64,000 bases of DNA from a virus (lineage: Duplodnaviria; Heunggongvirae; Uroviricota; Caudoviricetes), in IMG/VR virus record IMGVR_UViG_3300029746_000007, positions 19,505-83,504 of that record; one strand, 5' to 3'. The notes below the pieces were generated by a model. It did no database searches, was not told where the DNA came from, and saw nothing but the letters and a program-made list of their open reading frames with translations. Within the stretch, counting starts at the first letter, position 1. Every line of letters begins with the position of its first letter. The position numbers were made by a program, and so were the translations under genes. Below, one piece after another: positions 3,022-47,408 of the stretch.

Positions 3022-3455
3022 ATTATATAGAAATAGCAAAAGCAATAGAAGAGTTTGATTCTATGACATCAGAAGAAATTCAAAATAACATAAAACCCAT
3101 TATTAAAAGTTATAGCAAAGAGTTTCTTTCTGAGTATCTTGGGGTGTCAAAGGAAAATTTATATAGAATGTGTAAAAGCTTATTTGTAAGAAATAATGAA
3201 AAAATTAGATTTACAACATATATTAAAATTATGAGTTTAGGTGTTAATCCAAAATATAACGGGAAAAGATTCTACAAATCAAGAAAAACAAGCGTACAAA
3301 AATCTACTGGAAATAATAATGATATTGTTCATATCAGAACAAGAAAAACGCCGGAAGAAATCAAAGCAAAGCAGAAAGAATATCAGCATAGATATTACGT
3401 GGAAGTAACTAAGAAAAAACGAGCACAAAAGCGAATGGAAACAACAAGGAAATAG
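3018..3455 (+). CDS. hypothetical protein with basic C-terminus
   Basis: overlaps the upstream stop (ATGA coupling); KR-rich tail. Confidence 0.45.
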   Translation: MNYIEIAKAIEEFDSMTSEEIQNNIKPIIKSYSKEFLSEYLGVSKENLYRMCKSLFVRNNEKIRFTTYIKIMSLGVNPKYNGKRFYKSRKTSVQKSTGNNNDIVHIRTRKTPEEIKAKQKEYQHRYYVEVTKKKRAQKRMETTRK

Positions 3456-4181: not shown

Positions 4182-4341
4182 TCAAAATGAAAACATGGTG
4201 TATTGATTTTGAAAATGAAGAATTAGGTATATCTGTAGACGCAAGAACTAAGGAACAGGCAGTGGAAATTTCGGAAAATCCTTGTAACTGGAAAGACGGA
4301 AAGAAGAGAAAAGTATCTTCTGTATATGAATTTTAGGGCGG

Positions 4342-4590
4342 TTGATGGAAATGAAAAATATAGATTATGATAAGTTAGCTATGGCAATTATCAATGAGTA
4401 TGAATCAGATCGTGCAGAATCTGGTAGGAAAGAAATTAGAAAAGGAATGAAATATGTGTTAGATAAATATAAATCTGAGCACGATAAAGAGATTATTGAT
4501 GAAATGCTTATGACCTTTACTGGATGGAATTTAGAAACACTTATTCAAAAGTCAGAAAAGATAAGTGATGATGAAGTAGAAGAGGAATAA
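4342..4590 (+). CDS. hypothetical protein
   Basis: plus-strand ORF. Confidence 0.4.
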   Translation: MMEMKNIDYDKLAMAIINEYESDRAESGRKEIRKGMKYVLDKYKSEHDKEIIDEMLMTFTGWNLETLIQKSEKISDDEVEEE

Positions 4591-9478: not shown

Positions 9479-9766
9479 ATGAGCAAAAGAAAAGGGAATC
9501 CGAAGAAGTCATCGGAATTTATTTGTCTAAGATGCTTGAGAACAGAAGGATGTACTTGTAACGGATTGCAGAGAATACACAATATGAGAAAAGAGAATCA
9601 TGTGAAAAATCAATGGTGCGCTTTTGGCAAAGAAGAAGTTAAAGCATTGGAGATTAGAGAAAAGGATTTTTATTGTGAAAAACGTATAGAAGCAGAGATT
9701 TTGCATGAGAAATATTATGGAGGAAATGATTATGCAGGGATTGGCAGTAAAAGATGTAGAATTTAA
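9479..9766 (+). CDS. Cys-rich hypothetical protein
   Basis: CLRCLRTEGCTC motif; probable start is the ATG at 9479 (the ORF track lists 9470). Confidence 0.4.
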   Translation: MSKRKGNPKKSSEFICLRCLRTEGCTCNGLQRIHNMRKENHVKNQWCAFGKEEVKALEIREKDFYCEKRIEAEILHEKYYGGNDYAGIGSKRCRI

Positions 9767-10874
9767 TGGTGCGGTATTGAGAGCTGCACAGGTGGAAGAT
9801 ATTGTATATGTAGGTGTTAGATGGGTATGTCAAGGACTTGGATTAAGTGACGGGAAAGTTAAAAGTGAAAGAAAGAAAATACAAGAAGATTTAGTTTTAA
9901 AGCAAGGGACGAGATTTCTTCCCTTGGGTACAGGTAATTCAGACAGCGAAGTTTTATGTCTAATATTAGACTATCTTCCATTATGGTTAGCAAAGATTTC
10001 TATTACTCCGACAATGAAAAGAGAAAATCCGGAATTGGTCAATAGGTTAATTGAATATCAGCTTAAAGCGAAAAATGTGTTAGCCGAAGCATTTCTTTCC
10101 AAGAGAAAAGAAGAGATTATTCCGGCAGTTAGGAATAATATGATTCAGATTCCTATTCCTGAAGCTCCAAACTATGCAGAAGAATTTGAAATTCTTTATG
10201 CAAAATTAGACGACCTGGAAGAACAGAATCAGAAATTATATAATGGTATGTCAAACATGGCGAAGTTGCTTCTTGACATGAGTTCACGAAAAGAAACACA
10301 ATTGCCGGATATTAAACCTGTAAAAGAAATTTCGGAAGAAGATTCGTGGAAACAGATTGTGTACGGCAAAGCGGAAAACATCGTATGTAATAGTAGTTTC
10401 CGTAAAACAGCAAGTGTCCTGAAACATATCTATGATTATATGAGACAGAATTATGGTATTTGTTGGGAACAGGAGGCAAAAGACTATAAGGAACGGAATA
10501 ATCTCAGCTATTCACCAAAGACCATTGAGGTTGTGTATCAAAATGAAGATCTTCGAAGTATTTTCATAGCTGTGTTGACAGATATGGAATATAAAGCAAA
10601 AGAAGCTAAGGAAAAGAAGAATGAAATTGATTGGTCAGACCAACAGATTCTTCCATTGGTTAAGAAATACAATGATCACAGTAATGGTTTCATGGTTACA
10701 TATAGAAAAGTGTACGTTAGGATGGAAGAAAATAGTCGAATCAGTTGGAAAAATCTAACCACTAGATACATAAATGAATGTGGTGGAAAACCAACCAAGA
10801 AAGATTTGATTAATACACGAAAGTCTTTACAGAAAAAATTTACAAAGGCAATTGAAGAATTGATGGCAGAATAA
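9705..10874 (+). CDS. phage antirepressor-like protein (P22 Ant N-terminal / ORF6N-like domain)
   Basis: N-terminus LAVKDVEFNGAVLRAAQVEDIVYVGVRWVCQGLGLS resembles the antirepressor N-domain family; the true start is probably the ATG near 9724-9731 after GGAGG. Confidence 0.55.
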   Translation: MRNIMEEMIMQGLAVKDVEFNGAVLRAAQVEDIVYVGVRWVCQGLGLSDGKVKSERKKIQEDLVLKQGTRFLPLGTGNSDSEVLCLILDYLPLWLAKISITPTMKRENPELVNRLIEYQLKAKNVLAEAFLSKRKEEIIPAVRNNMIQIPIPEAPNYAEEFEILYAKLDDLEEQNQKLYNGMSNMAKLLLDMSSRKETQLPDIKPVKEISEEDSWKQIVYGKAENIVCNSSFRKTASVLKHIYDYMRQNYGICWEQEAKDYKERNNLSYSPKTIEVVYQNEDLRSIFIAVLTDMEYKAKEAKEKKNEIDWSDQQILPLVKKYNDHSNGFMVTYRKVYVRMEENSRISWKNLTTRYINECGGKPTKKDLINTRKSLQKKFTKAIEELMAE

Positions 10875-18009: not shown

Positions 18010-18163
18010 GTTACTTAAAAATAAATAGACGGAGAATAAATAATAGGAAAGGAAGTGATAGATATGTGTGAAAAGATTGATGAAAAGAATCCGGATGTTC
18101 AGGAGAAAGAAGTCAGGCGAATGGAAGTTTGGGAATATTTAGAATGGAAGGTTGGTGAGAAGA

Positions 18164-19213
18164 ATGAAAAAGACAGATAAATTAAAAAAACAATTACAGG
18201 ATAAAATCATCACAATGGATGAATTAGATATTACAATGGAAGACATCGGATATAATCTGGTAGAAATTGATGACAATGAAAACAACGTGATTAAATATAC
18301 AAATGGAAAGTCATTTATCAATGTATATGTCATGCATGATGGACAAGAATATATGGTAACGGATATTACGATGTCCAATAAGAAACGTGGTAGCACAACT
18401 GTAAGAGCATTTCATACAATTGAAGAAATAAAAGGAATGATGGATTGGTTCAGAGACAATGAGCAATATGATAATTTCTTGACTTTTATGTTAGGCTTAT
18501 TCCTTGCAAGACGTGTTGGTGATACGTTGTCATTAAAGTGGAGAGACTTCTACTTTGAAAATGGTAGAAGAAAAGAAAGTCTTAATACATTAATTGAAGA
18601 TAAAACCGACAAAATAGTTGATATGCATATTTCTGATGTTACGTGGAAATATATTGATTGGTATTGTGAAAAAACAAATATTGATCCAAAAGAACATCTC
18701 AATGAGGATATCTTTAAATCTTTGCATAAAGATTGGTTGCCGAATAATTATACGAAAAAACAATATGATGAAGCTGTAGAAAAAATGGAATCTTCATATC
18801 GTAATCAATTTAAAAAGGCAGCAGAAGCGTGTGGAATCAATGGTGTAAGTACACATAGCACACGTAAGTCATTTGGATATATAGCGCATGAAATTAACAG
18901 ATTTGATCCAGATTGCTATCCGGTATTACAGAGTGTGTATGGTCATGGTTCTGTAGAAACAACAAAAAGATACATTGATTGCATAAGAGAGAAAGCAAAT
19001 AAGATGTTTGAAGATGTAGCAAAATACATTGAAGATGTAGATAATGGGATAACACCTGAAATAAAGAATTTACTCATTGTAGCACTTTCGACAAATGATT
19101 TACGAGATGTATTATATACTGCTCTTAAACTTGGAAGAGAAACGAATGTAGAAGATGATGTTGAAAGTATGAATATGCTATTATCTATGGTAGAAGAAAA
19201 GCGTGTATCATGA
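18164..19213 (+). CDS. int: tyrosine recombinase / phage integrase
   Basis: motifs ARRVGDTLSLKWRDF (Arg I), HSTRKSF (HxxR box) and HGSVETTKRYI (catalytic Tyr) are typical of the tyrosine-recombinase family; the ATG at 18164 follows GGTGAGAAG. Confidence 0.85.
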   Translation: MKKTDKLKKQLQDKIITMDELDITMEDIGYNLVEIDDNENNVIKYTNGKSFINVYVMHDGQEYMVTDITMSNKKRGSTTVRAFHTIEEIKGMMDWFRDNEQYDNFLTFMLGLFLARRVGDTLSLKWRDFYFENGRRKESLNTLIEDKTDKIVDMHISDVTWKYIDWYCEKTNIDPKEHLNEDIFKSLHKDWLPNNYTKKQYDEAVEKMESSYRNQFKKAAEACGINGVSTHSTRKSFGYIAHEINRFDPDCYPVLQSVYGHGSVETTKRYIDCIREKANKMFEDVAKYIEDVDNGITPEIKNLLIVALSTNDLRDVLYTALKLGRETNVEDDVESMNMLLSMVEEKRVS

Positions 19214-19406: not shown

Positions 19407-19514
19407 GATATATTTGTCAGAAGAAGAGATGGAATTCATTTTATCTTATAGGAAGGCTAATTCTAATGATAAAAAGAAAGCAAAAGAAGTGTTAAAGATA
19501 GAAGGTGATGATAA

Positions 19515-19793: not shown

Positions 19794-19828
19794 AAAAGAC
19801 GATACTTATTTGGTATCGTCTTTTTCGT
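19794..19828. terminator. bidirectional rho-independent terminator
   Basis: perfect 10-bp stem AAGACGATAC/GTATCGTCTT with a 7-nt loop, flanked by an A-run and a T-run; it overlaps the last codons of the minus-strand repressor. Confidence 0.7.
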
Positions 19829-20153
19829 TATATTCTTTTATTAAAGCCTTTACTCGTTCTGAAAATACTTCATCTATAATTTCTCCAAAACTAACGTGTG
19901 CATCTTTAGCGAATTCTTCTTTTGGTAATTGAGAATTATCCTTTTTTGATTTGCTATAATCTGTGAATAAGTCATTGGGTGTACAATGGAATAAAACACA
20001 AAGTTTTTGAAGAGTTTCAAATTGAATACTTGTTGCCTCTCCTTTATATAATGCATAGAAAGTAGATCTTGATATCCCAAGATATTTTATTATTTCTCCT
20101 TTTGATAATTCACAGTCGTTAATAAATTCAGAAATATTTATCTTCATCTTCAT
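19806..20153 (-). CDS. XRE-family HTH transcriptional repressor (CI-like)
   Basis: N-terminus ELSKGEIIKYLGISRSTFYALYKGEATSIQFETLQKLCVLFHCTPNDLF fits the HTH_3 pattern; it is the only convincing minus-strand gene and diverges from the toxin promoter. Confidence 0.8.
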   Translation of the reverse strand: MKMKINISEFINDCELSKGEIIKYLGISRSTFYALYKGEATSIQFETLQKLCVLFHCTPNDLFTDYSKSKKDNSQLPKEEFAKDAHVSFGEIIDEVFSERVKALIKEYNEKDDTK

Positions 20154-20187
20154 ACCTCCTTTATATATGTAAAAGGATGCTCGAATT

Positions 20188-20196
20188 ATTATAACA
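20188..20196 (-). promoter_or_regulatory. candidate extended -10 element (TGTTATAAT) for the repressor gene
   Basis: reverse complement of ATTATAACA; located about 35 nt upstream of the minus-strand ATG. Confidence 0.3.
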
Positions 20197-20270
20197 TATA
20201 CTAAACATATTGGAAAGTATTAAAAATCGAACTAAAAATGATAAAAAGTACGTTATATAAGACAAAATAC

Positions 20271-20299
20271 TTGACAAACAGTCTGAAATATCGTACAAT
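20271..20299 (+). promoter_or_regulatory. sigma-A type promoter TTGACA-17nt-TACAAT
   Basis: exact -35 consensus at 20271..20276, 17-nt spacer, TACAAT at 20294..20299; about 40 nt upstream of the toxin ATG. Confidence 0.65.
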
Positions 20300-20341
20300 A
20301 CATTCAAAGGTAAGCAATACATAACGAAAGGAGGAATACAT

Positions 20342-20743
20342 ATGGAAAGTAAAAGAAATTTACATCGCTACGATATAATTGAAGCAGAAATTATAATGAA
20401 AGAAACATCTGGATCAATACAGAAGAAAAAACGTCCATATGTGATAGTTGGCAATGAGTTAGGCACAGCAACTGCTCCAACTGTAATTGCTATGCCTTTA
20501 ACTCATGTAATAAAAAGAAAAAATATGCCGGTGCATGGTTGTATTGAAGCTAAAGAAGGAAATGGATTACATCTGTACTCGATGGTTCTTGGCGAACAAC
20601 CTCAGACATTGGACAAAAATCATGAAATCATCAAAAAACTTGGTAATATTGCAGATCAAAAACAAAGAGATATTGTAAATAAAGTTTGCTTTAATACATT
20701 GTTTTACGGTGAAAATATTAAATGGGAGGAAGTGTTAGCATGA
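20342..20743 (+). CDS. mazF: MazF/PemK/EndoA-family endoribonuclease toxin homolog
   Basis: aligns along its length with B. subtilis EndoA (recalled from memory): KKRPYVIVGNELGTATAPTVIAMPLTHVIKRKNMPVHGCIEAKEGNGL vs [61 protein letters not shown] RBS. Confidence 0.75.
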   Translation: MESKRNLHRYDIIEAEIIMKETSGSIQKKKRPYVIVGNELGTATAPTVIAMPLTHVIKRKNMPVHGCIEAKEGNGLHLYSMVLGEQPQTLDKNHEIIKKLGNIADQKQRDIVNKVCFNTLFYGENIKWEEVLA

Positions 20744-21030
20744 TGAGTATTAATATTGTAGATAAAAAAACAGCTAAACAAATAATAGATAATGCACCTG
20801 TAGATAAAATTACAATAATCTGCTTGGATAGAAAAACACTTATACATGAGAAACCAGAAAGAAGAGAAAAAAAATATGGAAAAGAATTAGTAGAAATTGC
20901 GAAAAGCATTTCTTATGATGAAAATGATATTTTTGGAATTCTCTCGCTTGATGGAGAATTGAAAAGTAATCGTGATATTCTAAGAAATATTCTTTTCCCT
21001 AAATGGAATAAAACAAACAAATGTTCGTAA
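20740..21030 (+). CDS. hypothetical protein (overlaps the end of the toxin gene)
   Basis: ATG at 20740 preceded by GGGAGGAAG; the ORF-track start at 20722 contains the RBS itself. Confidence 0.4.
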   Translation: MMSINIVDKKTAKQIIDNAPVDKITIICLDRKTLIHEKPERREKKYGKELVEIAKSISYDENDIFGILSLDGELKSNRDILRNILFPKWNKTNKCS

Positions 21031-21093
21031 AGATGTTGACAAGAACATTTGTTCGAAGCTATAATAAACATGTCGAAAATAACAGAATAAAAA

Positions 21094-21134
21094 AGGCAAG
21101 TTCACATAATGGGCTGCCACCCGTGAACTTGCCT
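21094..21134 (-). terminator. hairpin that acts as a rho-independent terminator for leftward transcription
   Basis: 12-bp perfect stem AGGCAAGTTCAC/GTGAACTTGCCT with a 17-nt loop; an A6 run on the plus side gives a T-run on the minus strand. Confidence 0.45.
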
Positions 21135-21358
21135 AGTGAATTAACACCATAGCCGTTAACGACTATAACTATATTATTACATATTATCAAGAATATAGTC
21201 AAGGCAAATTCTGCCAATTTTTCGCAAATGTAATAATTAAATATTGTAACTCTGTGAAAGAGAATACGTTCTTGAACGATAAAAGACGTACAAGGTTTAT
21301 TTCTTGTGTCATTTTATCGAAATCGAGGATTATTTCTTGAAAATATTTTTATGAAAGG

Positions 21359-22078
21359 GTGATTTCTTTGGGCTATTTTATGCTCGTTTGTCGCAAAAAG
21401 AAGCTCTACTTACGCATTGGCGAAGGTGGAAGTCCTATTGTTTGTGGCAAAAAGGAAGCAAAAGTCTTCGATGAAATAAAAGCACAGAATGTTTTAGATC
21501 ATCTGCCAAAAGCATTGCAAAAGATGAATTTTGTAAAAGAGCCGGTAGTACAATCTGAGCTTAATATTTCTGATGAAGAAGAAATTCCAAGAAAAAAGAT
21601 AGTAATTGTTGAAAAAACTGTGGTAAAAAACACTTCTTATAATAAGAAGACAAAGAAAGTTATCAAAAATACTTCTTATAAAACACCACAAAATGTTATG
21701 AATTGGGTCGATAGAGTAACGCAATGCAACGATTTGTTCTTAGATGCCGAAGAGAGAAGACGTGAATTGCTAGACTGCTTATCAAATACGGATAAGAATC
21801 TATCGAATATATTACATAAAATTGAACTTGAAGATGATATGAATGCCTGCATGGGCTTCATGCAATACAAAAAGATAAGAGAATGTCTCCGTCGTAGAAG
21901 AATAGTAAAAGATGAAATATACATATTAGATGTAATTCTTGCGAAGCCAACTGGTGAACATAAAATCCCTTCATCACAAAAAATACTAGGAAGTGTAAAA
22001 CATTTGGAGAATAGAGTATTCAAAGTAAGAGAAACAGAAGATATTGAATGGCTTGACAAATTATGTGAGGGGGAGTGA
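21359..22078 (+). CDS. hypothetical basic protein
   Basis: 239-aa ORF; start uncertain (GTG at 21359 or ATG at 21380). Confidence 0.4.
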   Translation: MISLGYFMLVCRKKKLYLRIGEGGSPIVCGKKEAKVFDEIKAQNVLDHLPKALQKMNFVKEPVVQSELNISDEEEIPRKKIVIVEKTVVKNTSYNKKTKKVIKNTSYKTPQNVMNWVDRVTQCNDLFLDAEERRRELLDCLSNTDKNLSNILHKIELEDDMNACMGFMQYKKIRECLRRRRIVKDEIYILDVILAKPTGEHKIPSSQKILGSVKHLENRVFKVRETEDIEWLDKLCEGE

Positions 22079-22083
22079 TACCG

Positions 22084-22773
22084 ATGGCATCTTTAAAAGA
22101 TATGGAAGATAACAACTTGGAAGACACTGACGAATACAGAAAGAGAGAAGCTTGGATTGAGAAAATTTGTAATGAATATGCGAGTGATAATTTGCGAAAA
22201 CTCAAAATGTTCATTTCGAAAAAAATAAGTGCATTTGGAATTTCGCATAATGATCAAAGATATTTGGACTTTATAAGTATGGCGAATTGGCAATTATATA
22301 TGCTATTAAGAACTTTTGACCCAGATAAAAACGATTCAGTACATGGATACATAGAAGCGAAAATTGTTTATAAGATGAATACTGCATTGAGAGATGTGAG
22401 TACACAAAAACTTGTTAATTATGCAAGAGATGAGAACGGGAATATAAAAGAAGATGAAGATGGATATCGAACAATTATAACAAATGTCTCTTTAGAATAT
22501 AAAAATGAAGATGGATATTCTGTTGGAGATGTTTGTAAATCTAAATTCGATATACATAAAGAAGCATTTGGCGAAGAATATAGCGATGAGTATTACAAGT
22601 ATATGGCGAAACTTGGCAAAAAAGAACGAAGAGTTGCCAAGAAAATTGCGCAAGGATATTCACAACCTGAGATTGCTGAAATTTTACATATGACAATAAA
22701 TGAAGTCCAAGATTGTGTAAGAGAAATGAAAGAAACAAAAAATGTTTCGATATTTTATAAGAGGAAGTACTAG
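22084..22773 (+). CDS. sigma-70 family (ECF-like) sigma factor
   Basis: region-2-like FISMANWQLYMLLRTFDPDKNDSVHGYIEAKIVYKMNTALRD and region-4 HTH KKERRVAKKIAQGYSQPEIAEILHMTINEVQDCV; GGGGGAG RBS before the ATG at 22084. Confidence 0.55.
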   Translation: MASLKDMEDNNLEDTDEYRKREAWIEKICNEYASDNLRKLKMFISKKISAFGISHNDQRYLDFISMANWQLYMLLRTFDPDKNDSVHGYIEAKIVYKMNTALRDVSTQKLVNYARDENGNIKEDEDGYRTIITNVSLEYKNEDGYSVGDVCKSKFDIHKEAFGEEYSDEYYKYMAKLGKKERRVAKKIAQGYSQPEIAEILHMTINEVQDCVREMKETKNVSIFYKRKY

Positions 22774-22775
22774 GT

Positions 22776-24221
22776 ATGTGTATGTATGGAAGAGATAAGA
22801 CAAAAAAAGATCCTTATATGATAAGAATCATAATGAAAATGTTTAGTAGAGGTGAATTACATAAAGATTATATTCTCCAAAGGCAAAGTGGACAGTTTGA
22901 TATAGAAACTCGTGATGGCTTAGTTGCCTCAATTTTACGATCAGAAGATATCGATCCAATTAAATTATGTGAGCAGTTGATTGGAGAAAGAATAATCATT
23001 TGGTTAATTGATGGATTACAGAGAATTACAACCTGCGATGATTTTCGAAATGGAAAATTTAAAATGGGCAAAAATCTCAGGATGCCATATACATATTATC
23101 AGAAAGATGGACAGGTTGTTGAATTCGACATGAGAGGAAAGGGTTGGTCAGATCTTCCAGAAGAATTACAGGATAGATTTGATGACTATTCATTTGATGT
23201 TGTAAAACATCTGGATTGTACAGATGAAGAAATTGCGTATCATATGGCAAGATGTAACCGTTGTGCAAAGATGAATGCAAATCAGAAGGGAATATTATAT
23301 ATGTACAAAATTGCCGGATACGTTAAAAAGCTTTCACAGAATCATAGATTTTTCTTCGATTGTGGAAATTATACATCTACTGAAAAGAAAAAAGGTGTAA
23401 TAGATCGTGTGGTAAATGAAACAATTATGCTGATTTATCATCTTGACGATTGGAAACGTGGAAAAGCAATGAACATTTATTTGAATGAAAATGCAAACAA
23501 AGAAGAATTTGATGAATTTGAAAACGAATTAGACAGATTGAATAAATTTATTGACCAGGGCACAACTGGAAAGCTTTTTAATAGTAAAGATAGTTTGTTG
23601 TGGTTTGCTACATATCATGAGTTCCTTACATATAACCTTGACGATGAAAAATTTGACGGATTCTTAAAAGAGTTTATGTCTACATTAAAAGATAAGAAAT
23701 TTAAAGAGTATGATGACATGTCATTTGAAGAATACGGAAAACAGAAAAGCACGAAGGATAGAAAGGTAATTATTACTAAGATGGACATGCTTGAAAAACT
23801 CATGAAAGAGTACTTACATATTGAAGACATTGACGAAGTTGAATTGCCAGAAGAAGTAAAAAATGAAGAAACCCCGTCACTTGATGATGAATTAGAACCA
23901 ATTGAATTCTTACATAAATACGTAAGTACTGAGATTACAGAAAATGATCTGGACGAATATTATGATGACATTAATTATTTCACTAAAAAAAGGCTGATAC
24001 CAAAGGATCACAACCTTATAAATGAAAAGAATGAGATATCATTCCTTGCTATTGTTGCATATGCGATGAGAAAAGAGAAAGATAATGAATTTGAAATGTG
24101 GCTCAAGCGATATGCGATTACACATAGAAGTGTTACTGCAAAAACGCAGCGAGATAATTATATCGAAATGGTGAATAATTTTGAGAGAGCATTAAATATG
24201 AAAAGAGGTGTGGTTGCATAA
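22776..24221 (+). CDS. DUF262 (ParB-like) domain protein, 481 aa with acidic C-terminal region
   Basis: motifs YILQRQSGQFD and IDGLQRITTCDDF match the DUF262 signatures; no DUF1524/HNH partner domain is visible. Confidence 0.55.
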   Translation: MCMYGRDKTKKDPYMIRIIMKMFSRGELHKDYILQRQSGQFDIETRDGLVASILRSEDIDPIKLCEQLIGERIIIWLIDGLQRITTCDDFRNGKFKMGKNLRMPYTYYQKDGQVVEFDMRGKGWSDLPEELQDRFDDYSFDVVKHLDCTDEEIAYHMARCNRCAKMNANQKGILYMYKIAGYVKKLSQNHRFFFDCGNYTSTEKKKGVIDRVVNETIMLIYHLDDWKRGKAMNIYLNENANKEEFDEFENELDRLNKFIDQGTTGKLFNSKDSLLWFATYHEFLTYNLDDEKFDGFLKEFMSTLKDKKFKEYDDMSFEEYGKQKSTKDRKVIITKMDMLEKLMKEYLHIEDIDEVELPEEVKNEETPSLDDELEPIEFLHKYVSTEITENDLDEYYDDINYFTKKRLIPKDHNLINEKNEISFLAIVAYAMRKEKDNEFEMWLKRYAITHRSVTAKTQRDNYIEMVNNFERALNMKRGVVA

Positions 24222-24757
24222 TGAAAACAATGAAATTATCCGATATTAAAATTACGGAGGCTTTTGAAAGTACTCATCCAAGTCCAGATAAAATTAGGAA
24301 GAAAAAAGAGCAGTGGCTAAAGACTGGTAGACAGGGGAAATACATAGTTGTAAATAAAGATGGATATCTTGTAGATGGATATATTACATATCTTATTATG
24401 AAAGAGTTAGGCGTTGAAAAAGCGAAAATTATTAAAAAGAAATCATGGATGAATCCGATTGAAAGTTTGGAAATTAAAGAACCTGCCTATAGAACAGAGA
24501 ATACTACATATGTGTGGGGTGTTCATCCAAATTCTCCGGATAATAAACTGTATGTTTGGAGAGTTCCGAATGGTGGAAACTGGAATGAATTCAAAAAGAA
24601 TATAACCGTAGGAGATATGATTTTCTGTTACGCAAAAGGGAAGGTGTCTCCGGTGATCATTAAAGCGATTCAGACTACAGATGTTTGCCCGACACCATTG
24701 GATGTGAAGAAGGTTTGTAGTAAGAATATTGTGAAAGAAAGTGAGAACAATGCCTGA
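24221..24757 (+). CDS. ParB N-terminal-like domain protein with C-terminal PUA/EVE-like region
   Basis: GKYIVVNKDGYLVDGYITYLIMKELGVEKAKII fits the ParB N-domain pattern; C-terminal YVWGVHPNSPDNKLYVWRVPNGGNW block suggests an EVE/PUA-type fold; ATGA overlap with the upstream gene. Confidence 0.45.
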   Translation: MKTMKLSDIKITEAFESTHPSPDKIRKKKEQWLKTGRQGKYIVVNKDGYLVDGYITYLIMKELGVEKAKIIKKKSWMNPIESLEIKEPAYRTENTTYVWGVHPNSPDNKLYVWRVPNGGNWNEFKKNITVGDMIFCYAKGKVSPVIIKAIQTTDVCPTPLDVKKVCSKNIVKESENNA

Positions 24758-24922
24758 TATTACGATGTGCATGAGTAAAGATTGTCCCAAAAAGAATGAA
24801 TGTTATCGTTCTATGGCAAAACCAGATAAATATTATCAAAGCTATGCTGATTATGGAAAGATTTGCTTAGAAAATGATTATAAATACTTTTGGGAAACAA
24901 TTGTTCAAAAGAAAGAATAAAT
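24755..24922 (+). CDS. small Cys-rich protein (CxxC-like)
   Basis: MCMSKDCPKKNECYRS; its stop codon lies inside a 22-bp direct repeat. Confidence 0.3.
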
Positions 24923-24929
24923 CAATAGA
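24908..24929. repeat. 22-bp direct repeat copy 1 (AAAGAAAGAATAAATCAATAGA)
   Basis: exact second copy at 25165..25186. Confidence 0.8.
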
Positions 24930-25164
24930 TAATATTTCTGGTAGCCACTAAGCAGGGTAATTATCGTGTCGGATAATTACGCCAGTGTTCACAAACAAGT
25001 TCCCATCTGTTAAGACGGAACCGCTTGTATGCACGTACGTGCACCTTTGGTCTACTCATACAATCAACTCCTTTCATGTGTCGTTAAGGTTTAAATACCA
25101 TACGATCACTTGGGACAAGTTGAAATTGCACTTAGTGACTACCATTAATATACATTATACGTCT

Positions 25165-25186
25165 AAAGAAAGAATAAATCAATAGA
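25165..25186. repeat. 22-bp direct repeat copy 2
   Basis: exact copy of 24908..24929; the pair flanks a 235-bp GC-richer segment. Confidence 0.8.
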
Positions 25187-25422
25187 CATGAATTTTAGGT
25201 TTCAAAGGCAGAAAAGTTTGGCGACCGACCTGCCTAAGAAACCCAGGATAACAAAGGATAAACCTTGTTAGTTCTTATTATAAATAGTTCTAATGGCTTG
25301 GTCAAGTCAGTTTTATCCTTAAGAAATTAAAAATATCGCAGGTGGTTTTGCTCCTGAAGGTGAGTATCAATACAAACCAGAATCTATGTAAATAATATGT
25401 GTAAAGATTTGAGGTTTTGGAT

Positions 25423-25515
25423 ACCTATAGAATTACATTGGTACAAAACCGAAATCCATCTGCAAGTCCTGTCCAAACAGATTCAGACACCTATAGAATT
25501 ACATTGGTACAAAAC
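25423..25515. CRISPR. CRISPR-like minimal unit: two identical 27-bp repeats (ACCTATAGAATTACATTGGTACAAAAC) around a 39-bp GC-richer unique spacer
   Basis: repeat 1 at 25423..25449, spacer 25450..25488, repeat 2 at 25489..25515; the flanks differ; iterons are an alternative reading. Confidence 0.35.
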
Positions 25516-25595
25516 AGAGATATCTAATTTAACATAGTAACAAAAAACATAATTAAAATTAATATACAAATTTATATAAGTAATGAGGTGATAAA

Positions 25596-25745
25596 AATGT
25601 TCATGTTGGTAACACATATTATATTGATGCTATTTTGCATATATGAAGTGGCTTATCAGGATAGAAAATCTCAAAAAGCCATATGGACATGCATGGCGAT
25701 ATGTTGGCTTGGAATGATACTTTGTGATATTCCGACGGTGTTTTG
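25596..25745 (+). CDS. small membrane protein (2 predicted TM helices)
   Basis: AATGAGGTGATAAAA RBS; MFMLVTHIILMLFCIYEV ... AIWTCMAICWLGMILC. Confidence 0.3.
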
Positions 25746-25789
25746 ACAACCGGAAGAAGAAATATATAACAAGAAAGGAAATAAAAAAC

Positions 25790-27847
25790 ATGGAAGGTTT
25801 TATTAAATTTAAGAGTGAATTACAGAAGCATTTTGAAGAAATGCAGGAAAATGTAACGCAGTTATTTGAAGTAGATGTTGATAAAGATGAGCTTTGGAAT
25901 ACATATCTTGATAGTTTTTCGGCTGGAACAAATGAAATTTTCAGAGAAAGAAGAGAACATGATTGTAGTTGCTGTAGACATTTTATTAAGAATATTGGTG
26001 CAGCAGTATCTATTAAAGACAATAAAATACATACGATTTGGGAACTTAATCTTGGTGATACTACATATCAGCCAGTATGCGATGCGCTTGATAAATATGT
26101 AAAAGCTCATTCTGTTATCGGCATGTATACTAGTAAGTTTAAAAATATTGGAACTGATTACAATTACGAAGAAATTAATGGAAAGCCACATAAATGGGAT
26201 CATTTCTTCTTGACGTTGCCTAGAAGATTTGTGAATGAATCAAATAAGTCAAATGAAGAAGTAAAGGGACAGTTCAGAGATACAAGAAATGTATTCAAAC
26301 GATCGCTTGATGAAATCACAATGGATGCGGTTAATACAATTCTTGAATTGATTAATTCTAACACTCTTTATAAAGGAGAAGAATGGAAAGCTGTACTTAC
26401 TGAATTCAAAAAATACAAGAAAGAATATGACAAATTATCAAGCGAATCAGAAAAAGAATTATATGCATGGGAGAAATCAGCAACGGCAGGCATGACGATC
26501 GGAAGAATTAGAAATCATTCTATCGGGACGCTTCTCGTAAATGTAAGTAATGATATGGATCTTGACACTGCTGTTAAAAAATATGAGCAGATTGTAGCTC
26601 CGGCAAATTATAAAAGACCGAAAGCTATTTTTACAAAGAAAATGCTTGAAGATGCTAAGAAAACAATTACAGAACTCGGTTATATGGAATCATTGCAGAG
26701 AAGATTCGCAAACTTAAATGATATTACAGTAAACAATGTACTGTTTTCAAATAAGAGCGCAACAGGAAGGATGCTTGGAGCAGATGACATTTTCGGTCAG
26801 ATGGAAAAAGAAGTAGTCACAAGTCCGAAGAAATTTTCAAAGGTTGAAGAGATTCCTGTGCAAGATTTTATTGATAAGGTACTTCCAACTGCAAAAGAAG
26901 TCGAAGCATATGTAGAGAATAAGCATGAAAAGAATTTTGTATCTATGATTGCTCCTGTGAATCCGAACTCTAAACCGATGTTTAAATGGGGGAATAGACT
27001 TAGCTGGGCATACACAGGTAATATTACCGATTCTGACATGAAACAGAAAGTAAAGGCAGCCGGTGGAAATGTAGAAGGAGTATTAAGATTCTCTATTCAG
27101 TGGAACGAAGACGGACGAGATAATTGTGATCTTGATGCACATTGTATCGAGCCAGACAAGAATCATATTTATTTTGGCAATTGTAGAAAACCACGTCCAT
27201 CTAAGATGACAGGAGAGTTAGATGTTGACGTAATTAATCCTTGTGGTCGTGTTGCTGTAGAAAATATTACTTGGTCTGATTTATCAAAGATGAAACCGGG
27301 TGTGTATAAGTTCTTTGTAAATCAGTTTAGCGGATCTGTTAGGAAAGGATTTAGAGCAGAAATTGAATTTAATGGAGAGTTGTATAAATTTGATTATAAC
27401 AAATCTATGAGAAGTGGAGAAAATGTACAAGTTGCAGAAGTGACACTTGACAAAGATGGTAATTTTTCTATCAAAGAGGAACTTGCTGGAAATTCTTCAA
27501 TTTCAAGCCATGAAGTTTGGGGTGTAAATACAAATAAATTTATTCCCGTTTCTGTCATTAGTTATAGTCCGAATTATTTTGATGGTCAGGACGGAATTGG
27601 ACATAGACATTTGTTCTTTTTCTTAAAAGATTGTGTAAATGCTGAAGAACCAAATGGGTTCTATAATGAATTTTTAAAGCAGGATTTACAAAAGCACAAA
27701 AGAGTATTTGAGGCTCTTGGAGCGAAATGTCATGTAGAAGACACAGAAGATCAGCTTTCTGGAATCGGATTCTCTATGACAAAAAGATCGGATTTGATTG
27801 TAAAAGTCAAGGGTGCGACAGAGCGTGTGATGAAGATTAAATTTTAA
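25790..27847 (+). CDS. large hypothetical protein (686 aa), no recognised domain
   Basis: long uninterrupted ORF; AGAAAGGAAATAAAAAAC RBS before the ATG at 25790 (the ORF track starts at an upstream GTG at 25724). Confidence 0.6.
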   Translation: MEGFIKFKSELQKHFEEMQENVTQLFEVDVDKDELWNTYLDSFSAGTNEIFRERREHDCSCCRHFIKNIGAAVSIKDNKIHTIWELNLGDTTYQPVCDALDKYVKAHSVIGMYTSKFKNIGTDYNYEEINGKPHKWDHFFLTLPRRFVNESNKSNEEVKGQFRDTRNVFKRSLDEITMDAVNTILELINSNTLYKGEEWKAVLTEFKKYKKEYDKLSSESEKELYAWEKSATAGMTIGRIRNHSIGTLLVNVSNDMDLDTAVKKYEQIVAPANYKRPKAIFTKKMLEDAKKTITELGYMESLQRRFANLNDITVNNVLFSNKSATGRMLGADDIFGQMEKEVVTSPKKFSKVEEIPVQDFIDKVLPTAKEVEAYVENKHEKNFVSMIAPVNPNSKPMFKWGNRLSWAYTGNITDSDMKQKVKAAGGNVEGVLRFSIQWNEDGRDNCDLDAHCIEPDKNHIYFGNCRKPRPSKMTGELDVDVINPCGRVAVENITWSDLSKMKPGVYKFFVNQFSGSVRKGFRAEIEFNGELYKFDYNKSMRSGENVQVAEVTLDKDGNFSIKEELAGNSSISSHEVWGVNTNKFIPVSVISYSPNYFDGQDGIGHRHLFFFLKDCVNAEEPNGFYNEFLKQDLQKHKRVFEALGAKCHVEDTEDQLSGIGFSMTKRSDLIVKVKGATERVMKIKF

Positions 27848-35453: not shown

Positions 35454-36509
35454 TTGATGACAGATTATTTCTCGCAAAAACCTAATAGTATTGTTGTTTG
35501 TTCGAATGGTGGAGCGCAAAGAGGACATACTGTAGTTACCTCAACTGGAATCAGACATGTCTTTCATCATTTTGGCTCAGGGACTTTCAATCAAGCGGAT
35601 ACATATCTCTCAGAAGACTTTATTTGCAATCCGATTATTTTTAAGCAAGAATACAATGAATTAAAACAACTAGGCTATTGTCCGAACATTTATATAAATC
35701 AACATTGTATGGTAACAACTCCATATGATATGATGGCTAATCAAATTATAGAAGAGAAACGTGGAAAGAATAAGCATGGAAGTTGTGGTCTTGGAATTTA
35801 TGAGACAATTAAAAGATATAAAGCCGGAGTAACTACTTTGTATGCCTCCGATTATATCCGAGATTATTACTTAAAGATTTTCGACAGAGAAGGAATTGTC
35901 TTAACTAAGAAATGGGAAGATTTGTTCAATGATTCAGGAATTTACGATCATTGTTTGGAAGATTGGGATTTTATGAACGAAGTAGCAACAACGATTTCTG
36001 ATGAATGTTTTCTCAATGAGTACGAGAATATAGTATTTGAAGCTGCACAAGGTCTTTTACTTGATCAAAATAATCTGAAATATTATCCACATCTTACACC
36101 CTCTAACACAGGAATAAAAAATCCAAAGAAAATAATTGAAAATGTGAAATGGGACGATGATATTAACATTGAGACATGTTATGTGTCAAGGACATATTTA
36201 ACAAGGCATGGAGCAGGGCAATTCCCATCTGAATGTGACAAGTCGCTAATCAATCAAAGAATGTATGATAAGACTAATGTTCCAAATCCGCATCAAGATA
36301 CTTTGAGATATGGTTTGCTCGATTTAGATCAATTATACGATAGATGTATAAAAGATGTTGAAGGTTTTGGACATAAAAAATCTATTGTGTTTACACATAT
36401 AAATGAATACTCCATGAGTAAAAAAAGAATTAAGAGTCTATTTGACGATTGGGACATCTATTTTTCAGACGGCGAGACACATAATGATATATATAGAATA
36501 AATAATTAA
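35454..36509 (+). CDS. adenylosuccinate synthetase-family protein (PurA homolog; candidate PurZ-type enzyme); N-terminus unresolved
   Basis: SNGGAQRGHT, FEAAQGLLLD and TRHGAGQFPSE align with PurA motifs GGHNAGHT, FEGAQGTLLD and TRVGAGPFPTE (PurA sequence recalled from memory); the P-loop GDEGKG is encoded in frame at 35436..35453, before the first start codon and after an in-frame TAG at 35418. Confidence 0.7.
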   Translation: MMTDYFSQKPNSIVVCSNGGAQRGHTVVTSTGIRHVFHHFGSGTFNQADTYLSEDFICNPIIFKQEYNELKQLGYCPNIYINQHCMVTTPYDMMANQIIEEKRGKNKHGSCGLGIYETIKRYKAGVTTLYASDYIRDYYLKIFDREGIVLTKKWEDLFNDSGIYDHCLEDWDFMNEVATTISDECFLNEYENIVFEAAQGLLLDQNNLKYYPHLTPSNTGIKNPKKIIENVKWDDDINIETCYVSRTYLTRHGAGQFPSECDKSLINQRMYDKTNVPNPHQDTLRYGLLDLDQLYDRCIKDVEGFGHKKSIVFTHINEYSMSKKRIKSLFDDWDIYFSDGETHNDIYRINN

Positions 36510-45946: not shown

Positions 45947-46690
45947 TTCAATAGAGAATATATAAATAGGTAATTATTCATTGTTTACTGGAAACTTTAG
46001 ACTATGACTCATCTGAGTTTTTATCAGTTACTCCGATGTAAAAAGATAAACAAACTGATACATAAAGAATATAATTTTTACAAAACAGATGGCTTACTAT
46101 GCTAAAGTAAATACCAAATATTAAGATATATTAAGATAACAAAAGCCTCCGGCATGAGAAGTAAACTGCTATAAAGCTAAAAGTTATAAATCTCAAAGAG
46201 TAAAGTTAAAGATTCAAAGTTTTTCATTAGTACAAAGTTCAAACAGTAAAGATAAAAGATATAAAGATTTATAAAATCCCAGATAAAAGGTTGCGAGTAT
46301 AGTTGTAATTGACTTTGGGTTGTCCTCTGGGCTGGTAAATGGTGAATATATTATAAATAATGTTTCCTCCTGTATGATGATACACGGGATACAAATTTTT
46401 CCATACTAAATATATGAGAGTGGAGTATAAATCTCTCACATCAAAATCCAATTGGTTAAGCAGTGGGTTGCGATTGGCATCAATATAGAGAATATATAGA
46501 TGAAGAAACTACTGTAAATTACAATGGGCTGTGGTGAATAAGTAAACACATATGGCTTTGACCCATATATTAGTGGGGGCAGTACCCACCAGCCTAGTTT
46601 GTCTGAATTATCAATCAGACACTCCTTTCTAAAATTGATGCTTTATCACAAATAGGTTGGCAACTTACCTCATAAAAGTTGTAAGTTTCT

Positions 46691-46764
46691 GGAGCGTTAG
46701 CATAGTTGGTTAATGCATGTGCCTCATAAGCATAAGATCACCCGTTCAAGTCGGGTACGCTCCA
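46691..46764 (+). tRNA. tRNA-Met/fMet-like (anticodon CAT)
   Basis: manual fold: acceptor GGAGCGT/ACGCTCC, D-arm GCAT-AGTTGGTTAA-TGC, anticodon stem TGTGC/GCATA with loop CTCATAA, T-arm ACCCG-TTCAAGT-CGGGT. Confidence 0.6.
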
Positions 46765-46880
46765 TGAGAGATACTTGACCTTACACTTTTCCAAAGCACT
46801 CTGGAACAAAGGTTAGCGAAAAGTGCGCTTAAGACATTGCGTATTAGTCATGTGCGAAAACATGGGTGCGCTTATAATAC

Positions 46881-47027: not shown

Positions 47028-47198
47028 TTTGTGGATTGATACAATGCTAGTTGTTGAGATTCACATATCCGAACGAAAGTATGCCATGAGAAAGCATATT
47101 TGAATTGTATAAGTGTCGTTAAACAGCAAACTTTCTCCGACATTTATATTTCATAGGTTGTAGCGCGCATAATCTGTGACGGAACTATTACATTAGTG

Positions 47199-47276
47199 TG
47201 GCAATTAGCTCAGTAGGGAGAGCAAAGAACAAGGTATACTTTTCTACGGTCGGTGGTTCGAGTCCATCATTGTCAC
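47199..47276 (+). tRNA. tRNA (anticodon unresolved; anticodon stem has a mismatch and the variable region is extended)
   Basis: acceptor TGGCAAT/ATTGTCA, D-arm GCTC-AGTAGGGA-GAGC, T-arm GGTGG-TTCGAGT-CCATC. Confidence 0.5.
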
Positions 47277-47340
47277 ATCGGTTAGATAATAACCGAAATC
47301 ATAGTTTTTCATACTTTTCATTGACGTTTGTTTACGGGTT

Positions 47341-47408
47341 TGGCTGTTGGTGTAAATGGATAGCACGTTATTGCCGTAAAGATAAAGGTTCGAATCCTTT
47401 ACAGTCAA
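47341..47408 (+). other. tRNA-like degenerate element (too short for a canonical tRNA)
   Basis: T-arm AAAGG-TTCGAAT-CCTTT and acceptor TGGCTGT/ACAGTCA pair, but only 17 nt lie between the D- and T-arms. Confidence 0.3.

Follow-up and report, generated by a model that had tools for sequence, protein, structure and literature searches.

In a 64-kb stretch of viral DNA (positions 19,505 to 83,504 of the IMG/VR record IMGVR_UViG_3300029746_000007; hereafter the window), a gene for a MazF-family endoribonuclease overlaps the start of a small downstream gene. We propose, with moderate confidence, that this pair (20342..21030, plus strand) is a toxin-first MazF cassette that regulates its own mRNA and the early mRNAs of the phage, and that it is fixed in the lysis–lysogeny switch. 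The cassette lies between a divergent helix-turn-helix (HTH) regulator and an early promoter probably controlled by host LexA, in a family of large temperate phages of Clostridia. MazF toxins are usually viewed as host stress or defence factors, and they have recently been shown to steer the lysis–lysogeny decision in Bacillus arbitrium phages, where they act as precise, non-lethal regulators of mRNA. An earlier note, made from the letters of the window alone, had drawn attention to the toxin gene. Absent from it were the features that point to a function: the UACAUA hexamers in the leader of this gene, an early operon loaded with the same hexamer, and a LexA-box promoter that follows the partner gene.

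The MazF gene and its overlapping partner

The cassette and its expression signals comprise the following features, all read from the plus strand:

20271..20299, plus: P_mazF, the promoter of the mazF-like gene, TTGACA-17-TACAAT, 11 of 12 consensus positions
20299..20304, plus: UACAUU in the mazF leader (sequence reading)
20318..20323, plus: distal UACAUA of the mazF leader (sequence reading, leader alignment)
20330..20334, plus: Shine–Dalgarno (SD) sequence GGAGG of mazF, 7 nt before the ATG (read from the sequence)
20337..20342, plus: proximal UACAUA between the SD and the start codon, UACAU-AUG (sequence reading, relatives)
20342..20743, plus: mazF-like gene, predicted sequence-specific endoribonuclease, 133 aa (Pfam, PHROG, PDB, fold, residues)
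20725..20729, plus: internal GGAGG for the partner gene, within the last mazF codons (WEEV), conserved in relatives
20740..21030, plus: partner gene (ORF2), 96 aa, putative cognate MazF inhibitor, with an ATGA overlap with the mazF stop

The earlier note had placed the toxin gene in the MazF/PemK/EndoA family, and Pfam, PHROG, PDB and Foldseek agree on this identity. The open reading frame (ORF) matches the Pfam profile PemK_toxin (PF02452; E = 1.5e-15, 57.8 bits for a cutoff of 23.1, profile positions 2–105 of 109) and PHROG 1936, 'MazF-like growth inhibitor' (1.7e-16), and its sequence matches in the PDB include the MazF of S. aureus (7e-10) and of B. subtilis (8e-8). The AlphaFold model (pLDDT 80, pTM 0.77) and its Foldseek matches show the SH3-like barrel of MazF/Kid/CcdB: the top 40 matches in the PDB are all MazF-family chains (TM 0.6–0.68). 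Across the family, as represented by alignments of 21 and 63 sequences, there is no or almost no variation at G24, Q27, R31, P32, T54, S80, E85 and Q86. Among these, R31, T54, G24 and P32 correspond to Arg25, Thr48, Gly18 and Pro26 of the B. subtilis protein; in MazF, the Arg and Thr are catalytic and the Gly and Pro contact UACAU (PMC8634880). By sequence, fold and most key residues, the ORF belongs to the MazF/PemK family.

The near-consensus promoter and the strong ribosome-binding site described in the earlier note are both there. P_mazF matches the consensus at 11 or more of 12 positions in 45 of the 58 distinct related upstream regions; promoter-like matches as a whole are no commoner in this AT-rich stretch than in shuffled sequences (12 vs 10.1). 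No MazE/PemI gene lies upstream, again as noted before, and the upstream neighbour is a divergent regulator of the HTH_26 type. Between the latter and mazF, there is no same-strand ORF of at least 30 aa, only a 28-aa ORF over the promoter. The locus is thus not a canonical mazEF/pemIK/kis-kid operon, because the upstream MazE/PemI/Kis is absent.

The downstream ORF, mentioned in the earlier note as the only adjacent candidate partner, proved to be invariably present, so that the toxin gene cannot be called solitary. For comparison we used relatives from IMG/VR and metagenome contigs (90–185 kb), as well as stretches within bacterial contigs of Lacrimispora, Acetivibrio and Eubacteriales. All 109 loci with a related MazF have an ORF of 83–107 aa that starts −40 to +60 nt from the MazF stop. 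The junction between the two genes is always ATGA or TAATG, and a GGAGG precedes the partner ATG by 9–11 nt in all the related loci listed (31 loci, 18 distinct partner proteins), as befits a translationally coupled gene. Even in Lacrimispora indolis, at 40% identity, an ORF of ~90 aa occupies the same overlapping position. The 51 distinct partner proteins merge into one family after one iteration with a hidden Markov model. The pairwise identities of MazF and of the partner are tightly correlated (r 0.92), whereas those of MazF and of the product of a DUF262 gene 2 kb away are not (r 0.42). Accordingly, no pair of loci combines a MazF identity above 90% with a partner identity below 60%, while 26 pairs do so when the DUF262 protein takes the place of the partner. 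Because of the co-occurrence in 109 of 109 loci, the coupled junction and the difference between the two correlations, mazF and its partner are inherited as one unit in otherwise mosaic genomes. Adjacent genes with overlapping stop and start that always travel together are the mark of toxin–antitoxin (TA) systems of type II.

The partner itself resembles nothing with a name. It has no match in Pfam, PHROGs, NCBIfam or PADLOC, it shows no HTH, ribbon–helix–helix (RHH) or AbrB signature, and its model has no DNA-binding fold neighbour and no fold neighbour in the PDB. The earlier note had spoken of no recognisable fold. This stands in that no fold or profile matches the protein, and falls in that a confident, globular fold is predicted for it. 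A fold search in BFVD returned a single match, an uncharacterised phage protein. A profile built from 13 partner sequences retrieved 583 proteins, among which there was no Pfam domain and no informative name. The exhaustive profile search yielded 79 clusters at 50% identity, all of small stand-alone proteins, and no domain fusion was found among their representatives. A protein search with the partner alone gave only 7 relatives and made it look like an orphan; we rejected this, since the profile search gave 583 and the low number stems from the word-index limit. We also considered whether the charge of the partner indicates RNA mimicry and drew no conclusion (the pI is 9.1 for the window protein, and the family median is 5.7). 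The sequence data suggest that the partner binds and restrains MazF. We found neither the partner family nor a MazF pair in toxin-first order described in the literature.

UACAUA in the mazF leader and in the early operon

UACAU is the classical site of the MazF of B. subtilis, S. aureus and C. difficile. In the window, AATACAT occurs three times at 19-nt spacing in the mazF leader, with the last copy between the SD and the ATG. The MazF sequences of the relatives fall into the clade of the window (clade A) and a second one of short-MazF relatives. The leader carries UACAUA in 40 of 42 clade-A loci, compared with 58 of the 837 other leaders of the same loci. All 12 aligned clade-A leaders have TACATA at −24 to −45, in varying flanks and at varying spacing, and 17 of 48 distinct leaders, nearly all from the clade of the window, have the proximal site at −3 to −12. 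Such an arrangement is rare elsewhere in the window: among its 99 SD-bearing genes, four have TACAT within −12..−1 and mazF alone has at least two TACAT within −45..−1. The coding sequence of mazF in the window contains no UACAUA, and those of mazF and the partner are free of it in 15 of 16 distinct close relatives. The MazF of B. subtilis and Listeria cuts U^ACAUA only, and that of S. aureus prefers this site (bioRxiv 10.64898/2026.08.06.743204). An alternative in which the AATACAT repeats are a protein operator was rejected as the main explanation: the spacing varies between 19 and 27 nt among the relatives and the hexamer is kept.

Two other elements of this intergenic region were recorded. 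A block (A/U)AUCAAAGGUAA is conserved just 3' of the −10 element of P_mazF (20300..20316 in the window) and at the equivalent place in relatives from both MazF clades; it may serve as an operator or as an element of the RNA. On the minus strand, a UACAUA stands just before the SD of the divergent HTH gene (20166..20171); it is found in 10 of 50 distinct leaders, in near relatives only, and was not used as evidence.

The hexamer is also concentrated downstream of the cassette. The sense strand of the window contains 57 UACAUA for 42 expected (TACAT, 120 vs 106), and 18 of these 57 sites fall in 21178..26062. Conversely, the sense strand has none between 10768 and 20317, 9.5 kb in which the window average predicts ~8. 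This motif-free stretch holds a recombinase gene and many small genes; the regions upstream in relatives are also motif-poor (0.4–0.55/kb). To sample the downstream side we took the 4 kb after the partner gene in 70 distinct loci. They contain 634 sense UACAUA, for a Markov expectation of 404, and 153 antisense ones; on the sense strand, the variant hexamers UACAUU, UACAUC and UACAUG occur 92, 22 and 66 times. An unbiased scan of all hexamers identified TACATA as the most over-represented one in both MazF clades (z 8.2 and 7.9). Under synonymous-codon shuffling, which keeps the proteins and the codon usage, the 70 loci have 480 sites observed versus 215.5 ± 11.4 (z 23), and every one of them exceeds its own shuffle mean; the same procedure applied to the upstream genes gives 23 versus 21.7. 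For the window alone, the values are 17 versus 4.8 ± 1.75, with sites in all three reading frames. Immediately 3' of the partner gene the density is ~3.5/kb, and past 4.5 kb it is less than 1/kb. The excess over the shuffles, the sense-strand bias and the presence of sites in all three reading frames argue that the MazF hexamer has been selected at the level of RNA, and only in the initial part of the neighbouring operon. The literature that we searched describes no phage that concentrates a MazF site in its own early operon.

These counts bear directly on a possible role of MazF as a weapon of the lytic phase: synthesised soon after induction, it would cleave host mRNAs (host shut-off), and phage functions would be shielded by the partner. 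The cassette does diverge from the regulator, where early lytic genes usually start, and in some relatives (L031-type) it stands directly opposite a CI-like repressor with an S24 domain. A nuclease of this kind needs to spare its own phage, and the opposite is observed: the sense strand is not depleted of the motif, and the early operon of the phage itself is the most motif-rich stretch. We dropped the self-sparing version, since neither TACAT nor TACATA is avoided on the sense strand at the counts given above, and regard the host shut-off explanation as decidedly improbable.

Several points weigh against our preferred reading, in which the phage nuclease acts on transcripts of the phage. The residue check that the earlier note had called for found the catalytic Arg and Thr and the RNA-contacting Gly and Pro kept, but the equivalent of Glu20 (B. 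subtilis and MazF-Da numbering; Glu24 in E. coli) is Ile26 in the window and Ile/Val clade-wide, and Glu is retained in L031-type and short-MazF relatives only. In MazF-Da, the change E20A almost abolishes activity, and the conserved Glu is required for substrate binding (PMC8634880). With this replacement, the activity or the specificity of the phage MazF may differ. Leader sites are nearly absent from the short-MazF clade (3 of 27), so self-cleavage is not universal. The loci compared are phylogenetically related and their counts are not independent events; simple inheritance is made less likely by the variable flanks, by the strand and position specificity, and by the shuffle controls. The partner is unlike any known antitoxin, without a recognisable DNA-binding domain and without the disordered toxin-binding tail typical of MazE; the separate divergent HTH_26 gene could supply regulation in place of such a domain. 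Adjacency alone partly explains the high correlation of MazF and partner identities. Finally, by analogy with the phages SPbeta and phi3T, the UACAUA load could be read by the MazF of the host.

This last point is part of a broader alternative, according to which the load is tuned to host MazF and the phage pair acts on host MazEF, either by titration of MazE, by formation of mixed dimers, or through a partner that is an anti-MazF permitting lytic growth. It would agree with the enrichment of host MazF sites in the transcripts of SPbeta and phi3T, whose proteins AimX and YosL bind host MazF, with the replaced Glu20 equivalent, and with an enrichment that extends to the clade whose leaders lack the sites. 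The near-invariance of the catalytic Arg/Thr and of the RNA-contact Gly/Pro favours an active enzyme over a decoy, though, and the partner has no MazE-like sequence or helix. We consider this alternative unlikely.

The switch region and its surroundings

The cassette is flanked by a regulator gene on the minus strand and by an operon with its own promoter:

19806..20153, minus: divergent Cro/C1-type HTH regulator, 115 aa, HTH_26 (Pfam HTH_26, 9.2e-13)
20188..20216, minus: promoter-like site for the regulator gene, TTTCCA-17-TATAAT with an upstream TG, 10/12
21036..21065, plus: P_early, perfect TTGACA-18-TATAAT (12/12), six bases after the partner stop codon
21043..21054, plus: Cheo/LexA box GAACATTTGTTC (GAAC-N4-GTTC), in the P_early spacer, the sole box in the 64-kb window
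21078..21202, minus: candidate antisense small RNA, ~90 nt (promoter-like sites and terminator hairpin)
21178..26067, plus: UACAUA-rich early operon, 18 sense sites
21359..22078, plus: unknown gene, 239 aa, first gene of the early operon
22075..22773, plus: sigma-70/extracytoplasmic function (ECF)-like gene (NCBIfam TIGR02937 at 8e-9, below its cut-off, and PHROG 1740; weak)
22776..24221, plus: DUF262/GmrSD_N, NsnA-like gene (profile matches)
24221..24757, plus: early-operon gene
25724..27847, plus: early-operon gene, with only its 5' part in the UACAUA-rich stretch

The LexA box is found in exact form in 24 of 69 distinct related regions, in relaxed form in 55 of them, and in none of 69 size-matched controls. 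Related loci often have two boxes, and those without any include the loci with an S24 repressor of their own. Because the box overlaps the promoter core and is conserved in the relatives, host LexA probably controls P_early. No terminator was found between the partner gene and P_early, so that transcripts from P_mazF may read into the early operon.

The leader of this operon shows signs of transcription from the opposite strand. Two promoter-like sites (21202->21173 and 21190->21162, minus strand) are accompanied by a long, bulged terminator hairpin with arms at 21094..21105 and 21123..21134, followed by U6 (minimum free energy −34.8 kcal/mol, z −4.4). Of 64 distinct related regions, 60 have a minus-strand hairpin with a T-run; their stem sequences differ and covary, and the apical motif GGUGCGCCAACACC recurs in the hairpins of several relatives. 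These features suggest a small RNA that is antisense to the leader of the early operon.

The HTH_26 protein is probably a transcriptional regulator of the switch region. Nearly all related loci have a small minus-strand HTH gene at the same place, and gene order is kept: after the minus-strand HTH regulator come mazF and the partner, then a gap of ~350–450 nt, the unknown gene, the sigma-like gene and the DUF262 gene. L031-type relatives differ in that a repressor with HTH and Peptidase_S24 domains (1.4e-18), similar to CI and LexA, replaces the regulator; MazF and a downstream protein of 105 aa are retained. In two of these S24-repressor relatives (L031 and L033), an ORF of 48–53 aa precedes mazF and a Cys-rich ORF of 61 aa follows the partner (3291..3452 and 4313..4498), neither with a Pfam match, and the sigma-like gene is preceded by two minus-strand genes, one of the HTH_26 type and one RHH-like.

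Loci collected through MazF would make any count of its presence circular. To avoid this, we fetched 80 loci through the DUF262/NsnA-like gene (22776..24221). MazF is at the same place in 55 of the 59 distinct loci with enough upstream DNA. Only four are without it, three of these from a different GC-rich element, which is too few to serve as a natural control for the motif load. The accessory genes of these phages have a slot of their own: the variable region is upstream of the HTH gene, over 1–4 kb (L004, L034–L038), and its cargo in relatives includes HicA/HicB, RelE with an HTH gene, Fic, Abi_alpha, GIY-YIG, an acetyltransferase and IS66. The element of Lacrimispora indolis (L009, 2578..3300) has a second PemK-domain protein (240 aa, 8.6e-7) just upstream of the HTH gene. 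The earlier note had described the site of mazF as a classic moron or defence position next to the repressor. This view does not survive the comparison, since 55 of the 59 relatives that were collected independently of MazF have the pair and the variable slot is on the other side of the regulator gene: the mazF pair is a fixed component of the region and not an accessory moron with a patchy presence.

The same result tells against a related interpretation, that of an ordinary type II TA module in reversed order with a new antitoxin, engaged in prophage addiction, abortive infection or superinfection exclusion, and to which the UACAUA pattern is unrelated. MazF/PemK proteins are classic addiction and defence toxins, strict coupling and co-inheritance are as in cognate TA pairs, other TA and abortive-infection (Abi) genes lie near the locus in relatives, and PHROGs classes the family under 'moron, auxiliary metabolic gene and host takeover'. 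We nevertheless find it rather unlikely. The position of the pair is fixed while true accessory genes vary, no PADLOC model matches MazF or the partner, and such a module leaves unexplained the enrichment of the MazF hexamer on the sense strand of the adjacent operon and its conservation in the leader. A non-classical role is the likely one, as the earlier note had suggested.

The loci in which the regulator differs also help to tell which gene would be the antitoxin. XRE-type antitoxins exist (HigA, MqsA) and the HTH gene is nearly always adjacent to mazF, so that the divergent regulator could take this part instead of the downstream ORF. Yet it is divergently transcribed, 19 of the 55 loci with MazF that were fetched through the DUF262 gene gave no such gene in a phmmer search, and in L031-type loci the unrelated S24 CI-like repressor replaces or displaces it, while MazF and the partner stay together. 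We find this assignment hardly credible. Likewise, nothing supports the proposal in the earlier note that the repressor neutralises the toxin, its place being taken by the S24 CI-like repressor in distant relatives.

Judged from its gene content, the window comes from a large temperate phage of Clostridia, because it contains phage-type genes, an Ant-like anti-repressor and a tyrosine recombinase, and because relatives lie inside Clostridia contigs. It is AT-rich (32% GC), has almost all genes on the plus strand, and encodes a DNA polymerase, a DnaB-like helicase, a RecJ-like exonuclease and a Sak4-like protein, replication genes of phage type. A megablast search of phage records with a 5-kb query gave no match; at the DNA level, the annotated phage collection does not contain the family. 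The tyrosine recombinase gene (18152..19213; Pfam Phage_integrase, 4e-9; PHROG 216, 5e-30) is on the same strand as the lytic genes and upstream of the switch; its homologues in relatives are shorter (259–300 aa), and the TTG start in the window is probably too early. The Ant-type N-terminal domain belongs to a protein of 389 aa (9705..10874; PHROG 524, 5e-20), which may be another player in the lysis–lysogeny decision. A gene at 35454..36509 matches PHROG 1211 (5e-59) and is adenylosuccinate-synthetase-like, of the PurZ type of the 2-aminoadenine pathway; it may hint at a replacement of adenine in the phage DNA. An Rfam scan of the window found nothing but tRNAs, and the calls between 46690 and 47408 differ between programs: ARAGORN places a tRNA-Met at 46690..46765 and a tRNA-Pro(agg) at 47198..47277, Rfam has 46691..46764 and 47341..47408.

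A proposed mechanism and its known analogues

We propose that the phage MazF would cut U^ACAUA, like the characterised MazFs of Bacillota, in two kinds of transcript. The first would be the mazF leader, in which a cut between the SD and the AUG would lower the translation of MazF. Such a cut would spare the internal SD of the partner gene, with negative feedback and an excess of partner as the outcome, and the toxin-first order would be explained by this self-cleavage, because it leaves the translation of the partner intact. The second target would be the early-operon mRNA over its first ~4 kb, a stretch that includes the sigma-like factor. The partner would bind MazF and hold it in check; free MazF would destroy the early-operon mRNA, and the switch would fire when transcription or the supply of partner outruns MazF. 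Early expression at the lytic switch would thereby be damped or gated, most likely stabilising lysogeny, as the analogy with SPbeta and phi3T suggests. A different timing, in which early mRNAs are shut off in a RegB-like pulse after induction, would fit the anatomy of L031-type loci equally well. A more specific form of the proposal, which we put forward only tentatively, is that MazF is a hexamer-specific post-transcriptional gate on the SOS-controlled operon, with its sigma factor, and on the mRNA of MazF itself, restrained by an antitoxin of new fold; the decision would then depend on how stable this antitoxin is or on its ligand state.

If this mechanism is correct, the cassette would be a self-contained, phage-encoded version of the arbitrium host-MazF circuit and the first toxin-first MazF system with a partner other than MazE. 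It would provide a case, open to direct testing, in which a phage has a nuclease of this kind of its own and has adapted its early transcripts to the cut site, a rationale for the toxin-first gene order, and a new protein family and fold as candidate MazF inhibitor. It would also define a compact regulatory region, with an HTH regulator, a MazF pair, a LexA-box promoter and a candidate antisense RNA, in abundant uncultured Clostridia phages of the human gut. The in-cis motif pattern would mean that the recognition sequence of a MazF can be inferred from genome data alone.

The chromosomal MazEF of Bacillota (EndoA/EndoAI, also NdoA/NdoAI, of B. subtilis and MazEF of S. aureus) shares with the phage pair the fold and family of the toxin, its catalytic Arg/Thr and its UACAU-contacting Gly/Pro, and the experimentally determined cut site of these enzymes, UACAUA, is the one that we infer for the phage MazF. 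The phage pair differs in being toxin-first and without MazE (no RHH or AbrB antitoxin), its partner being a new globular family with no detectable DNA-binding domain, and its MazF has Ile/Val in place of Glu20 and an extra C-terminal tail. Moreover, the cassette belongs to a phage, and the targets predicted for it cluster in cis.

In SPbeta and phi3T, phage transcripts are enriched in UACAU(A), the activity of host MazF favours lysogeny, and MazE mimics of the phage permit lysis. The likeness of these arbitrium phages (AimX, YosL, phi3T_93) to the present case would be that MazF acts on site-enriched phage transcripts and is restrained by phage-encoded proteins. Their nuclease is owned by the host and their inhibitors mimic MazE, whereas here the nuclease is owned by the phage and its partner is unrelated to MazE; in addition, the enrichment here extends only over the initial ~4 kb of an early operon that is probably under SOS control.

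RegB of phage T4 is a phage-encoded, sequence-specific endoribonuclease with a toxin-like fold, which inactivates the early mRNAs of its phage and its own message at the ribosome-binding region. It is RelE/YoeB-like, cuts GGAG, needs ribosomal protein S1, has no partner protein and belongs to a virulent phage. It resembles the role proposed for the phage MazF in that a phage nuclease acts on the early mRNAs of the phage and on its own message. It differs in fold family and cut site, in having no partner, and in the virulent lifestyle of its phage.

The toxin gene is upstream of the antitoxin gene, as mazF is upstream of the partner gene here, in the TA systems HigBA, MqsRA and HicAB. A regulator separate from an antitoxin without DNA-binding domain, as may be the case here, is known from the three-component systems omega-epsilon-zeta and PaaR-PaaA-ParE. 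All of these have toxins of other families, and the regulator here is divergent and probably also regulates the phage switch. Homologues in PHROG 1936, from Heliusvirales gut phages and the Psychrobacillus phage Perkons, are phage MazF genes with no annotated MazE adjacent, as in the window; they are only 30–43% identical and occur in other genomic contexts, and their records describe no function, partner or target pattern. By analogy, the arbitrium host-MazF circuit, T4 RegB and the toxin-first and three-component TA systems appear to be the closest working analogues of the cassette. Annotated phage MazF homologues were already known; the partner family, the toxin-first MazF pair and the concentration of the MazF site in cis are, to judge from the literature searched, new.

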